IMG/VR virus record: IMGVR_UViG_3300006310_000001
Reading direction: 5' to 3' (one strand)
DNA: 64,000 nucleotides
DNA from: a virus
Part shown: positions 16,305 through 47,168 of the stretch, piece after piece
Numbering within the stretch: the first letter of the stretch is position 1
Layout: every line of letters starts with the position of its first letter
Notes under the pieces: generated by a model
Told to the model about the DNA's origin: nothing
Databases searched by the model: none
What the model saw: only the letters and a program-made list of their open reading frames with translations
Translations under genes and position numbers: made by a program

Positions 16305-16928
16305 TTAAGATTTGAGTTCACTAGTTATAATCTCCTTCATTACTAATTTAGCTTTCGTCTTGTTAAATGATATAAATGGTTTCATTTTCCGCAATTTTCT
16401 GGACATATCAGTCCACACAACTTTTTCCGTAACTTGTTTATCCCAGTCTTTAATAAAACCAAGGACTGAATCAAGTATGATGGCGGTTGGGTATGAAACT
16501 TTCCGTTGAATAAGTAATCGTAGCATTCGTGGATGTTGCCCATTAACCACGCTAAAGCCATCATCAAAAGAAATGCCCCTCCTACTAAAGTCATAAACAA
16601 TACTATTAATACTGCTTCGTAAACTGTAGTCAAAAGACTCAAAATATTTTCTGTACTGAAGGTAGGTTTTGTGTCCATTGTCATTTAATAAATTCCCTAT
16701 CCATTTCTTACTATCGTCAATAAAATTACTTACAAAGAAATCAAGCACTTCACTTGGACTATATCTTGTAGATAACTTATAGAAGAAGTATCTATCTTTT
16801 CTTTTAGTAAATGAATCCAATGTTGCATTTACCTTACCTGTATATTTATGATAGTCATAGGTGTCTGTTGTAAAATGCAACTTAACACCTAGATATATCT
16901 TATATACGTCAAATCCTCCATATGCCAT
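16305..16928 (-). CDS. gp59: helicase loader gp59
   Basis: GFDVYKIYLGVKLHFTTDTYDYHKY..FTKRKDRYFFYKL. Confidence 0.92.
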   Translation of the reverse strand: MAYGGFDVYKIYLGVKLHFTTDTYDYHKYTGKVNATLDSFTKRKDRYFFYKLSTRYSPSEVLDFFVSNFIDDSKKWIGNLLNDNGHKTYLQYRKYFESFDYSLRSSINSIVYDFSRRGISFDDGFSVVNGQHPRMLRLLIQRKVSYPTAIILDSVLGFIKDWDKQVTEKVVWTDMSRKLRKMKPFISFNKTKAKLVMKEIITSELKS

Positions 16929-16929
16929 A

Positions 16930-17544
16930 CTAATCTATCAAATACTTATAACAAATTGGGAAATGGTCTTTCATATGTCTTGATAACTGGTGAGTGACCA
17001 TTCTCGTTTCTGCTTGAGCATTACTCTTACTCCTTAAATTACATACTCTACTAAATGCAAATACACTACCTGACCATATCCACTCGGTCATCATACATTG
17101 AGGTAGTACCATACGTGCCATTTCTGGTGCAATACCTTCCTCTAACATATCATTGTATGTTTCTGTAGCCACATTTATTAAATGTGTAATATCATATTCT
17201 ACTTCTTCATCACTTGAACCTTGTTTAATACTCTTCTCTGGTTTCTTTCTCCACATAAAAGGTATATAAAACTCTGGTTTATCTGAAACATATCGTCTAC
17301 TCACTTCGTTCCAACTTAAACCTACTTGATGTTTAACTAATTGTCTTGCAACAAAGATAGGTGCTTTAATTCTAAATGATAGAAAGGCGTGTGCAAATGG
17401 TGACCAATGTCCGTGCAATGCCAAATACTTAATTAACTTGTCATCTTTTTCATCAAGTTTATCTTTTCTTTTTGCAAAGGATACTCTAGCAGCATTGACT
17501 ACTGATAGGTCACTACCTAATTTATCTATAAGTTCTATATCCAT
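16930..17544 (-). CDS. thyX: flavin-dependent thymidylate synthase
   Basis: VVNAARVSF, GHWSPF, RQLVKHQVGLSWNEVSRRY, MARMVLPQ. Confidence 0.97.
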   Translation of the reverse strand: MDIELIDKLGSDLSVVNAARVSFAKRKDKLDEKDDKLIKYLALHGHWSPFAHAFLSFRIKAPIFVARQLVKHQVGLSWNEVSRRYVSDKPEFYIPFMWRKKPEKSIKQGSSDEEVEYDITHLINVATETYNDMLEEGIAPEMARMVLPQCMMTEWIWSGSVFAFSRVCNLRSKSNAQAETRMVTHQLSRHMKDHFPICYKYLID

Positions 17545-17711
17545 TATTCTCCAAATCCATCTATTGCTCTTGCGTGAAAAGGATTCTCTTTCTTTTCCTC
17601 TTCTTTCAATTCATCATATTTCTTTTTCTTTTTCTTATATTCTTCTTCTGTTAAACTATGCCAACCTATACAAAGTTGTGTTGGTGACCTACCACATTGA
17701 CATACTGACAT
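17544..17711 (-). CDS. CDGSH-like iron-sulfur/zinc mini-protein (55 aa)
   Basis: Manually read MSVCQCGRSPTQLCIGWHSLTEEEY...; C-x-C-x2-S-x4-C-x-G-x-H. Confidence 0.6.
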   Translation of the reverse strand: MSVCQCGRSPTQLCIGWHSLTEEEYKKKKKKYDELKEEEKKENPFHARAIDGFGE

Positions 17712-17899
17712 TAAAATAACTTCCCTATTTTATATACTCCCCATAATGCCATAAAGACAAATAAGGCACTTAACACACCACCTTCAAACAAAGCAACTAA
17801 TGTAACTGTTGCCCACAATGCATAGAACACTAAAGATTTCCAGTTCATAAAGAACCAAACTAATGCTAATCCAATTACTTTTAAATATTCTTTTATCAT
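17711..17899 (-). CDS. small membrane protein
   Basis: 62 aa, largely hydrophobic. Confidence 0.6.
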   Translation of the reverse strand: MIKEYLKVIGLALVWFFMNWKSLVFYALWATVTLVALFEGGVLSALFVFMALWGVYKIGKLF

Positions 17900-18114
17900 T
17901 ATGGTAATACTCCAGGTTTGCCACCTTTTAATAAGTTTAATTGTGCTGATTGATGTTGTATTTTTTCTTTGAGTTGTTTTGTAATTAGACGTGCTGTAGT
18001 TTCAACTTCAATAGTATTTTCTTCACAATATTTAACAATAGCATCCACATATGACATATCTTTATGCCGTTTTACTATGTCCTCTATGATTAAAGAAAAT
18101 TCTTTTGAGTTCAT
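17899..18114 (-). CDS. gp33: late transcription coactivator gp33
   Basis: FSLIIEDIVK..SYVDAIVKYCEEN.IEVE..A.LI.K.LKEKI..A..LNLLK. Confidence 0.88.
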   Translation of the reverse strand: MNSKEFSLIIEDIVKRHKDMSYVDAIVKYCEENTIEVETTARLITKQLKEKIQHQSAQLNLLKGGKPGVLP

Positions 18115-18120
18115 TTTAAT

Positions 18121-18149
18121 ACTATAACATATTTATTAGTAAATGTAAA
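18121..18149 (-). promoter_or_regulatory. sigma70-type promoter TTTACA-N17-TATAGT upstream of gp33
   Basis: 17 nt spacer, directly upstream of the gp33 start. Confidence 0.55.
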
Positions 18150-18410
18150 GCGCCTGACTTCTGTTGCCGCCTGTCAGGCAAAGACCGTTGCCTATTAACT
18201 AGGCAGCAAGAGCATAACTTTCGTTAGCTTTTATATGTTTGTCCTTTAAAGTAGCAACCTACTATCTAACTCCAGTTAGTTTTGATTGTGAATCGATCCT
18301 GTATCATCCCCCATAAGCACACTTGAAATCAATGTGTTTATGGTGGAGATGGTGAGAATTGCACTCACGTCTTCTCCAACTATTATCTAACCTTCAACGT
18401 CAAATTCATT
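18150..18410 (-). ncRNA. ssrA: permuted two-piece tmRNA (ssrA)
   Basis: Acceptor piece GTGAG-TGCAATT-CTCAC T-arm then CATCTCC-ACCA ending at 18341; intervening hairpin; coding piece starts GGGGATG at 18311 (G3:U70 pair); tag ORF 18228-18199 = ANESYALAA-stop; 3' hairpin GCCTGAC..GTCAGGC. Outer ends approximate. Confidence 0.9.
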
Positions 18411-18792
18411 ATAAACTTATTCCTTTGCCTTTAAACTTTAAATCAAATGACTTGTATAACATACAAGACTCTAGTCCATTCATTGTTGACATAACTACAA
18501 GTGATATTGTATATGTAGGGTCAACATAATAACTTACTATAAAAACTGGTTCACCATCTGGTCTAGCTCTATCTCTACCAACAGAAACATTAACCAAAGT
18601 CATTTCGTTCTTTTCTATATATGCAAGTACACTTTCACTTGTTCCACATATAACAGGCATTTGTAACCAATATAATTGTCCTTGTTCACTTGGAAATTCA
18701 GGCAATGGTGATGTTTCCTGCTCCGCCATAGCAAGTGTGCTCATAGTTATGAGTACTGCTCCAAATATTATTGATTTTAACCTTTTTAACAT
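18409..18792 (-). CDS. secreted hypothetical protein
   Basis: Signal peptide (ALA-like cleavage site), two Cys. Confidence 0.7.
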   Translation of the reverse strand: MLKRLKSIIFGAVLITMSTLAMAEQETSPLPEFPSEQGQLYWLQMPVICGTSESVLAYIEKNEMTLVNVSVGRDRARPDGEPVFIVSYYVDPTYTISLVVMSTMNGLESCMLYKSFDLKFKGKGISL

Positions 18793-18827
18793 AAGTGACC
18801 TCTCGTGGATAATCTCTAGCCACTTTG

Positions 18828-19526
18828 TTAATGATTTTGCTTGATTTTATCTTTGTTTAGTTCTTCATAGTATTTATAAAAATACTGTATAGATTCTTGT
18901 AGTTTTGGCTCAAATATTTTTTTATCTTTGACAAAAGAACGCATTGTGCCGTCTTCACCTGCCATTAAGATAACTAATTGGTCTATGCGTTTGCCAAATA
19001 GCTCTTCATACATAATTGCATAGGCAGTTGTTTGGACAAAATAGTTTTCTATCCAATCTTCTTTACGTTCCTTGTTCGCTGTCTTGAAATCTATTACTGA
19101 TAACTTGCCATTGTACTCAGCAACACAATCAACTTGACCTGCAATGGTCAATTTATGACTGTACATAATCTCTTCTAGTAAATGTATGTTATTAATTTGT
19201 GCTAAATAAGGCAACATCAATCTAAACATACCTAAAGGTAGTACATCCCTAATACTAGGTGTTTCACCTTTGATATACTGTTCAACAAGTGTATGAGTTG
19301 CTTTGCCTCTACGTGCCGCTCTACCCATTTCCCAATTGGCTGCTTCTTCACCAACTGCTTTTCTCCACTTCTCTAATCCTGCTTTTTTCTGAACACCTAA
19401 AACTGTAGTGATAGATGGATAGTTCTTGCCATCTACATCATAGAAACGGAAACCGTTTATACGTCTACCTTTTGTTTTTGGAAGTTTTGTCTTATCAATA
19501 TTAATCCAAGTAAATTTATCTGCCAT
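18828..19526 (-). CDS. PD-(D/E)XK exonuclease
   Basis: YPSITTVLG, GKATHTLVE, IAGQVDCVA..VIDFKT, YFVQTTAYAIM. Confidence 0.88.
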   Translation of the reverse strand: MADKFTWINIDKTKLPKTKGRRINGFRFYDVDGKNYPSITTVLGVQKKAGLEKWRKAVGEEAANWEMGRAARRGKATHTLVEQYIKGETPSIRDVLPLGMFRLMLPYLAQINNIHLLEEIMYSHKLTIAGQVDCVAEYNGKLSVIDFKTANKERKEDWIENYFVQTTAYAIMYEELFGKRIDQLVILMAGEDGTMRSFVKDKKIFEPKLQESIQYFYKYYEELNKDKIKQNH

Positions 19527-19797: not shown

Positions 19798-20268
19798 TCA
19801 ACTAGGGTCATATGGCTCATATATCGTCTTTCCATCAGAATTTCTATAAGCTCTTAATATCTGCTTTCTATTATCTTCTGAATTCTTATATGAGCAATGG
19901 ATCCAACCGCTATTCGGTTCATCCACATTGTGGTATTCCAATATCAATTGGTCAAAATCTAAATTATCAATAATGTATTTTGCTAGTTCAGCATTTGGTA
20001 ACCCAAATATTTCAAAATCAGCGGCTTGCCCTTTGGCGTGCTGTGATTTTAAACTTGAACCTATCTTAACACATAACTCTGGTGAACGGTACCCACTTGA
20101 TACTGATACTACTTTACCATAATGTGTTCTAATCGGTTGTAGTATGTTCTCACACAATTCCTTTAAATTATCTTGGTGGTCTTCACTAGGATTATTACTA
20201 ATGCCGTGTCTTTCAGCGGTTTGGCTTTTAACCATCTCCGACAATGAAAAGTTTTCGGTTAATCTCAT
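19798..20268 (-). CDS. peptidase M15A family (Zn peptidoglycan peptidase)
   Basis: NFSLSEM, VSSGYRSPELC, SQHAKGQAADF, DQLILEY, WIHCSY. Confidence 0.9.
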   Translation of the reverse strand: MRLTENFSLSEMVKSQTAERHGISNNPSEDHQDNLKELCENILQPIRTHYGKVVSVSSGYRSPELCVKIGSSLKSQHAKGQAADFEIFGLPNAELAKYIIDNLDFDQLILEYHNVDEPNSGWIHCSYKNSEDNRKQILRAYRNSDGKTIYEPYDPS

Positions 20269-46064: not shown

Positions 46065-47168
46065 TTACAATTTAAATTTCTTGAATTGATCCTTCTGTAC
46101 GTCTTGTTTAATTCCACCTATAACATAACTTTCAATTTCGGTCTCCTGTGGTGCATTTTGTAATGACCTACTATTTAACCAATGGTCAACCCAAGGTAAT
46201 GGATTTGTCTTTTGGTCATATTGTGGGTCTAATCCAATTGCTCTCATACGTCTATTTGCCATATACTCTACATATTGATGTAATAATTTTTCTGAAAGTC
46301 CTATCATAGAACCTTTTGAAAACAAATAAGTTGCCCAACGTTTTTCTTGATTAACTGCTCGTTCATACATTTTATAAACTTCTATTTGTGTATCTTTCAT
46401 TACCTTATTCATAATCTTATCATTTTCATTATCACGATAGTTATTAATTATTCTTTGTGATATTGATAAATGCAAACTTTCATCCCTTGCAATTAAAGAA
46501 AGTATTTTAGCAGAACCTTCTAACATCTTTAATTCTCCAAATGCAAACGAACAAGCAAAAGAAACATAAAATCTTAAACCTTCTAATATATTAACAGTCA
46601 TCAATGTTAAATATAGTTTCTTTTTCAACTCATACATATCAACACTATCTGGTGTTAATTGCCATTTATAACCTAAATTAATTAAATCATCATATGTTTG
46701 TGTTATACTAGTTGCCCTATTTTCAATCTTCTCATCTGTAACTATAGTATCAAAGATTTCACTAGGATTAGGATACAAATTCTTTATAATGTATGTATAT
46801 GAGTGTGAGTGTATGTTTTCAAAGAAGTCCCAAGCAATGACACAACTTTCTAATTCAGGTATTGAAACAAAAGGTAATAATGCCAACGCAGGACCTCTAC
46901 CTTGCACACTATCCATCATTGTTTGATATTTTATATTAGAAGTAAATATAAATTTACTTTGTTCATTTAATTCTCTATAATCTGCAATGTCTTTTTGTAA
47001 AGATACTTCTTCTGGTCTCCAAAAATAACCTAACTGTTGTTGAAACAGTTTATTAAAGATAGGATATTTTAATACATCATATCTTTGTACCTGTAAATCT
47101 TTACCAAAAAACATAGGTTGTTTGGTATAATCTAATTTTTTATCTATATTAAATACACTTTTAGTCAT
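46065..47168 (-). CDS. nrdB: ribonucleotide reductase class Ia beta subunit
   Basis: FWRPEEVSL, DSVQGRGP, ENIHSHSY, LEGLRFYVSFACSFAF, IARDESLH, APQETEIESY. Confidence 0.98.
   Translation of the reverse strand: MTKSVFNIDKKLDYTKQPMFFGKDLQVQRYDVLKYPIFNKLFQQQLGYFWRPEEVSLQKDIADYRELNEQSKFIFTSNIKYQTMMDSVQGRGPALALLPFVSIPELESCVIAWDFFENIHSHSYTYIIKNLYPNPSEIFDTIVTDEKIENRATSITQTYDDLINLGYKWQLTPDSVDMYELKKKLYLTLMTVNILEGLRFYVSFACSFAFGELKMLEGSAKILSLIARDESLHLSISQRIINNYRDNENDKIMNKVMKDTQIEVYKMYERAVNQEKRWATYLFSKGSMIGLSEKLLHQYVEYMANRRMRAIGLDPQYDQKTNPLPWVDHWLNSRSLQNAPQETEIESYVIGGIKQDVQKDQFKKFKL

Follow-up and report, generated by a model that had tools for sequence, protein, structure and literature searches.

A permuted two-piece tmRNA gene of alphaproteobacterial type in an uncultured T4-like marine phage

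Stalled ribosomes are released by a dedicated RNA, the tmRNA. The presence of a gene for such a molecule in a phage genome raises the question of whether it is an active component of the viral program or a piece of host DNA carried along with it. Here we consider this question for a permuted two-piece ssrA gene of the alpha type, located at approximately 18149-18404 on the minus strand of the IMG/VR record IMGVR_UViG_3300006310_000001, the whole analysed stretch of which (64,000 nt) is referred to below as the window. A previous description of the locus, made from the letters of the DNA (hereafter the sequence-only reading), had proposed that it encodes a tmRNA by which the phage supplements or replaces ribosome rescue, and that the gene is a marker of the host. 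The analysis described here indicates that the locus very probably corresponds to a functional phage-borne permuted two-piece tmRNA of alphaproteobacterial type, belonging to an uncultured T4-like phage of the pelagimyophage type.

Architecture of the gene and conservation of its structure

Several independent predictions coincide on the same gene. ARAGORN calls a permuted tmRNA (tmRNA*) with the tag ANESYALAA, contrary to the warning that scans of this type can miss the permuted form. The Rfam model tmRNA_permuted (RF04321) matches with 101 bits (cut-off 47, E 1.6e-18) over model positions 1-213 of 213, and the alpha_tmRNA model (RF01849), whose use the sequence-only reading had recommended, gives 82.1 bits against a cut-off of 50 (E 1e-20) over its full length (model positions 1-355 of 355). 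The gene order is permuted, i.e., the T-arm, the 3′ acceptor strand and the CCA precede the 5′ acceptor strand and the coding part (Table 1), and every element of the two-piece molecule previously proposed on the minus strand, including the tag frame, is recovered at its place.

The acceptor stem of the window copy comprises the seven pairs that had been announced, G1-C72, G2-C71, G3-U70, G4-C69, A5-U68, U6-A67 and G7-C66, and the short hairpin described between the two pieces is present as 6 bp within the spacer. Compared with shuffled versions of its sequence, the precursor as a whole gives a better fold (z = -3.8). The spacer hairpin taken alone falls short of significance (z = -1.6); relatives keep a hairpin of different sequence at this place, both the length and the sequence of the spacer differing among them, and no ORF was found in the 29 nt of the window spacer (18340-18312). 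A GAAUU motif (18402-18406, minus strand) lies where the acceptor piece begins; most phage copies conserve it, the SAR11 hosts do not, and its resemblance to RNase E sites suggests, as a guess, that it may mark a site of processing.

Table 1. Features of the tmRNA locus and of its neighbours in the window.
Feature	Position	Strand	Remarks
127-aa ORF	18409-18792	-	stops 5 nt before the tmRNA; signal-peptide-like N-terminus
Candidate promoter of the tmRNA precursor, TTTAAA-16-TATAAT	18408-18435	-	10/12 matches
Acceptor piece	18341-18404	-	long-range 5′ strands, T-arm, 3′ acceptor strand, discriminator, CCA
Long-range helices, 5′ strands	18404-18400, 18390-18387, 18378-18372	-	acceptor piece
T-arm, GUGAG/UGCAAUU/CUCAC	18368-18352	-	5 bp and 7-nt loop
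3′ acceptor strand, CAUCUCC	18351-18345	-	acceptor piece
Discriminator A	18344	-	acceptor piece
Encoded CCA	18343-18341	-	3′ end of the acceptor piece
Intervening spacer, 29 nt	18312-18340	-	6-bp hairpin; removal expected on maturation
Coding piece	18152-18311	-	GGGGAUG to 3′ hairpin
5′ acceptor strand, GGGGAUG	18311-18305	-	start of the coding piece
Conserved AUACAGGAUCGA	18304-18293	-	coding piece, after GGGGAUG
Long-range helices, 3′ strands	18292-18265	-	coding piece
Small hairpin, GUAG/CUAC	18262-18251	-	coding piece
Tag frame, GCU AAC GAA AGU UAU GCU CUU GCU GCC UAG	18228-18199	-	resume codon GCU, ANESYALAA, stop UAG
3′ pseudoknot and hairpin, GGCAACAGAA loop	18185-18152	-	3′ end of the coding piece
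Sigma-70-like promoter, TTTACA-17-TATAGT, TG before the -10 hexamer	18121-18149	-	abuts the tmRNA 3′ hairpin, upstream of gp33
gp33 late-transcription coactivator	17899-18114	-	phrog_254, E 5.8e-23
thyX	16930-17544	-	downstream of gp33
gp59	16305-16928	-	downstream of thyX

Conservation was evaluated in a MAFFT alignment of 38 copies, 30 from phages and 8 from SAR11, in which the helices were named from the window copy and then counted. The phage copies were collected among the matches listed by a pattern scan of viral contigs that admitted spacers of 15-45 nt only. The SAR11 genomes, near-exclusively Pelagibacteraceae records, were reached through a 16S probe and their tmRNAs were extracted with the Rfam model. 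A 689-bp contig assigned to an Amoebophilaceae MAG, probably a binning contaminant, was hit by this probe as well.

Across these 38 copies, 82.8% of the cells of the named structure are paired, against 41-52% when the partners are slid by 1-3 columns; the corresponding covariation scores are 0.49 and 0.08-0.15. The T-arm and the acceptor stem are paired in 100% of the cells and show compensatory changes: four of the five T-arm pairs have changed on both sides and pairs 5 and 6 of the acceptor stem covary, while G3:U70 is invariant (38/38) and the CCA is kept in all aligned copies. The 3′ hairpin is paired in 90.6% of the cells, with two-sided changes in 7/7 pairs, and its alpha-type loop, GCAACAGAA, is invariant or nearly so. 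Long-range helices 1-3 reach 76-80%, all 15 of their pairs having changed on both sides, MAFFT being less reliable for the host rows. A pseudoknot helix proposed by eye is paired in 77.6% of the cells, as GUCU/AGGC in the window and as GCGU/ACGU and GGGU/ACCU elsewhere. The small hairpin at 18262-18251 is without support in the alignment of the 38 copies (38.7% of cells paired). Swapped pairs in the T-arm and in the 3′ hairpin are found even in the closest relatives of the window copy, two contigs (L001 and L072) that are 89-94% identical to it. Furthermore, the same tmRNA is present in the nearest IMG/VR record, and another IMG/VR contig is 100% identical over the gene. We conclude that the window carries a genuine two-piece tmRNA gene, intact and under selection.

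The locus and its counterparts in other phages

The strand of the tmRNA also carries, downstream of it, gp33, two small ORFs, thyX, gp59, endonuclease V, an unknown protein of 295 aa and gp32, in agreement with the gp33-thyX-gp59 neighbourhood that had been described. Upstream, a 127-aa ORF that gave no match in Pfam or PHROG is preceded by a PD-(D/E)XK-type exonuclease. Further upstream of this nuclease-ssrA block, a Peptidase M15 (PF08291, E 1.6e-17; 19798-20268, minus strand) is encoded, probably a cell-wall hydrolase. Among named phages, the window is closest to Pelagibacter phage Mosig, with 83% DNA identity in gp32.

Among the matches listed, 44 loci combine an ARAGORN tmRNA with a gp33 match, and in every one of them the tmRNA precedes gp33 in the same orientation, in a sample biased by the short-spacer pattern (15-45 nt). 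The distance between both genes in these loci ranges from an overlap to 1.9 kb, with one case at 9 kb, and the identity of gp33 goes down to 38%.

Two promoter-like sites flank the gene. The upstream one, TTTAAA-16-TATAAT, ends some 4 nt short of the first tmRNA helix and overlaps the stop codon of the preceding ORF; TTGACA-N17-TATATA is found at the same place in other lineages, and we infer from these sequences a candidate promoter of the tmRNA precursor. The second site, sigma-70-like, has its counterpart in divergent phage lineages (L090, L104, L025, L043, L028 and L079), where TTGACA-N17-TATAAT appears right after the tmRNA 3′ hairpin. Promoter-like sites as a whole are not above chance in this AT-rich region, with 7 found versus 5.4 expected.

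Phage two-piece tmRNAs upstream of gp33 constitute a class already published for cultured relatives, of which the window is a further member. In the OM43 phage Melnitz, a two-piece alpha-type ssrA is placed directly upstream of the gp33 coactivator gene (Buchholz et al., 2022; PMC9004378), and the same study reports permuted tmRNAs in 17 of 47 related contigs, as well as 53 two-piece tmRNAs in 18,146 phage genomes, mostly marine. GenBank carries an SsrA annotation at the same position in Mosig and Melnitz, and alpha_tmRNA matches above the cut-off exist in Mosig, Melnitz and HTVC008M. A blastn search of the window tmRNA against 50,697 phage records gave no match: the copies of the isolates are too diverged for a DNA search and were therefore located with the Rfam model.

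The comparison with Melnitz (EXVC044M) is particularly close at the level of organization. It is likewise a T4-like marine myophage with a permuted alpha-type tmRNA and without SmpB, in which a PD-(D/E)XK nuclease and small ORFs are followed by ssrA, gp33, then gp59/thyX and gp32. It differs, however, in its host (OM43), in its tag (ANDNYVPVDYALAA instead of ANESYALAA), in an ssrA that is about 100-130 nt longer, and in the glutamine riboswitch that follows it. Mosig (EXVC030M, MT647606) has its SsrA slot just upstream of gp33, and HTVC008M (NC_020484) presents the same tmRNA-gp33 synteny; their RNAs are 50-57% identical to the window copy, and their tags are GEDNFALAA (called by ARAGORN) and ANFNEYALAA (read by eye from the alignment), respectively.

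The Melnitz riboswitch (RF01739, 52.8 bits; MZ577097, approximately 46398-46446, corresponding to L278:1926-1974) is located past the 3′ end of the ssrA body and before gp33. Though worded in the original paper as a control of ssrA (PMC9004378), its position fits a control of the downstream sequence rather than of ssrA. No RF01739 match was obtained in positions 17700-18900 of the window with E values up to 10, and the element is also absent from L001, from HTVC008M and from the ssrA locus of Mosig.

The tag peptide and the host lineage

The chromosomal tmRNAs of SAR11 (RF01849) share with the window copy the permuted order, the acceptor stem with G3:U70, the T-arm, the 3′ pseudoknot and the GCAACAGAA loop. 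They score 189-244 bits on the alpha model, against 82 for the window copy, carry an additional 5′ hairpin and another one past the stop codon, both missing in the window copy, and have shorter spacers. One SAR11 genome shows two full-length alpha_tmRNA matches (222 and 218 bits) 3.3 kb apart (G064, C1:216675-216974 and 220021-220321).

The RNA backbone of the window copy is approximately 54% identical to those of SAR11, and a simple midpoint-rooted tree places the phage copies together and apart from the SAR11 ones. This tree comprises phage and SAR11 copies, their placement with respect to non-SAR11 hosts being taken from the published one (PMC9004378, Fig. 5). The low identity, together with the grouping of the phage copies, points to an old acquisition. 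As judged from these comparisons, the tmRNA backbone follows phage descent and not host descent.

The tag tells a different story from the diverged backbone. Exactly these residues, ANESYALAA, also form the tag of P. ubique HIMB4, P. ubique HTCC8051 and Pelagibacter sp. HIMB1412, and the 27 coding nucleotides of the window differ from those of HIMB4 and HTCC8051 by only 2-3 synonymous changes. The comparison with candidate host ssrA genes that the sequence-only reading had suggested is thus favorable for the tag and unfavorable for the rest of the molecule. The other sampled SAR11 genomes mostly carry ANDELALAA, the commonest tag, ANNKLALAA and others. A second phage lineage (L090, L104 and L110), whose gp33 is 44-54% identical to that of the window, encodes the same nine residues with at most 6 synonymous differences in 27 nt from the host, and the RNAs of copies encoding this tag are just 55-69% identical. 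The persistence of the same peptide despite diverged RNAs and synonymous changes indicates selection on the tag peptide, and hence an actual use of the frame in tagging. On these sequence grounds, the tag frame appears to be selected at the peptide level, which points to real tagging.

Among the matches listed, the other gp33-linked phage copies encode more than 20 other tags, nearly all ending in LAA and most of them in ALAA, and none of these occurs among the 34 host tags read (the tags of HTVC008M, Mosig and three host rows were taken from ARAGORN or read by eye). The matching of tags is, in consequence, not general. In three copies, those of Mosig, L062 and L111, the tag frame begins with GGC (Gly) and not with GCN (Ala); of the three, L062 and L111 gave no tmRNA call with ARAGORN. 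The more ambitious proposal that the phage tag is actively matched to that of the host lineage, the nine-residue identity with P. ubique-type SAR11 reflecting selection for recognition by the proteases and adaptors of that host, would be rather unlikely.

These data also bear on the use of the gene as a host-assignment marker, which had been overstated. Melnitz has an alpha-type ssrA and yet infects OM43, a non-alphaproteobacterium (PMC9004378); P. ubique HTCC1062 served as the isolation host of both Mosig and HTVC008M, whose tags differ; and the backbone of the window RNA groups with other phage copies and not with host copies. An alpha-type ssrA alone is not a safe basis for assigning a host. 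For the window phage, the alpha-type form, the P. ubique tag and the kinship with Mosig give a hint in favor of a SAR11 host.

Proposed function and rival explanations

The sequence features described above can be arranged into a mechanism in which every biochemical step is modelled on host factors and on the two-piece tmRNA of Caulobacter. As far as the account given in PMC9004378 goes, the permuted precursor of the latter was shown experimentally to yield two base-paired tagging pieces (Keiler, Shapiro and Williams, 2000). The Caulobacter gene is cellular and its tag is another one; the window copy is known here from its sequence. No SmpB gene was found in the window, nor in the nearest IMG/VR record, Mosig, Melnitz or HTVC008M, and a P. 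ubique genome does encode SmpB. Lacking its own, the phage would have to be served by the SmpB, AlaRS and RNase P of the host.

Early transcription of the precursor would either start at the candidate promoter that overlaps the end of the preceding ORF or proceed by read-through. Host RNase P would cleave 5′ of GGGGAUG and host 3′-end enzymes would trim after the encoded CCA, the 29-nt hairpin spacer being lost between both events, and the acceptor and coding pieces would be held together by the acceptor stem and the long-range helices. The molecule would then be charged by host AlaRS through G3:U70, and brought by host SmpB and EF-Tu to ribosomes stalled on broken mRNAs, where translation would resume at GCU and append ANESYALAA, marking the product for host proteases. 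Since this tag is that of P. ubique, the phage RNA would feed the degradation pathway of the host itself. The likeliest benefit would be to sustain ribosome rescue and amino-acid recycling during infection, presupposing that infection by a T4-like phage generates many broken mRNAs and halts the supply of host tmRNA.

A literature search for the expression, processing, charging or tagging activity of this or any related phage tmRNA gave no result. In view of its lower score on the alpha model and of the two missing host hairpins, the phage RNA may differ from the host copies in its efficiency with host factors. As for the alternative between supplementing and replacing ribosome rescue, 95 of the 101 sampled SAR11 (Pelagibacterales) genomes have a tmRNA of their own, so that the phage copy would add to the host system instead of filling a gap in it. 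Replacement is therefore unlikely, and a supplementing role is plausible.

Could the gene be a passive passenger, i.e., a host ssrA or a fragment of it taken by imprecise excision at an att site and devoid of function in the phage? The idea deserves consideration, given that tmRNA genes are often integration sites and that fragments of them are found in prophages (discussed in PMC9004378). Nevertheless, the window gene is full-length, with both pieces, and single-copy, partial duplicates of either tmRNA end having been sought in the window without success. It sits within a T4-like replication and transcription module, and among the matches listed its position is unchanged across phages whose gp33 is only 38-55% identical. 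The compensatory changes among phage copies, and a backbone that is distant from the SAR11 copies and clusters with those of phages, speak in the same direction. The att remnant, which the sequence-only reading had named among the circumstances that would undo its proposal, is, like a decaying passenger, largely refuted by the covariation, the conserved synteny and the single full-length copy, and its probability is close to nil.

An opposite effect on the host has also been contemplated, in which the phage RNA would compete for SmpB and thereby damp or redirect host trans-translation, in the manner of the TLD-only molecule of mycobacteriophage DS6A. The absence of a phage SmpB would be in line with such an antagonist and, according to the passages of PMC4131195 and PMC11915505 that cite the work, a TLD-only tmRNA-like molecule expressed in E. 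coli inhibits tmRNA. However, an antagonist would hardly require a complete tag frame with conservation at the peptide level, or G3:U70 and CCA kept in all copies and, the tag being the same as that of the host, competition would leave the product unchanged; we consider this very unlikely. Slightly less room still can be given to a mainly regulatory element, in which the tmRNA 3′ end and the abutting promoter set the timing or level of gp33, rescue being secondary. The invariant order of tmRNA and gp33 (44/44 among the matches listed), the recurrence of the sigma-70-like promoter after the 3′ hairpin across lineages, and the glutamine riboswitch that occupies the same gap in Melnitz would all suit it. 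But in many loci among the matches listed 0.5-1.8 kb and other genes separate the tmRNA from gp33, a search for an intrinsic terminator gave none, and a role in cis does not explain why the tag peptide and AlaRS identity should be under selection. It is, in sum, highly improbable that regulation is the main task of this RNA. A functional tmRNA thus stands as the preferred reading.

The value of this locus is that of one more example of a published class, the two-piece tmRNAs of marine T4-like phages. What it adds is a tag shared exactly with cultured Pelagibacter strains by an RNA of old and diverged backbone, the constant tmRNA-then-gp33 order in the 44 loci among the matches listed, and a copy without the glutamine riboswitch reported for Melnitz. 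The cultured relatives Mosig, HTVC008M and Melnitz make the function of phage tmRNAs testable. If the matching of tags were true, the tag, and not the RNA backbone, could predict, down to the subclade, which hosts uncultured T4-like marine phages infect, and the tmRNA, the promoter and gp33 would constitute an old, vertically inherited unit whose tag would be retuned after host shifts.
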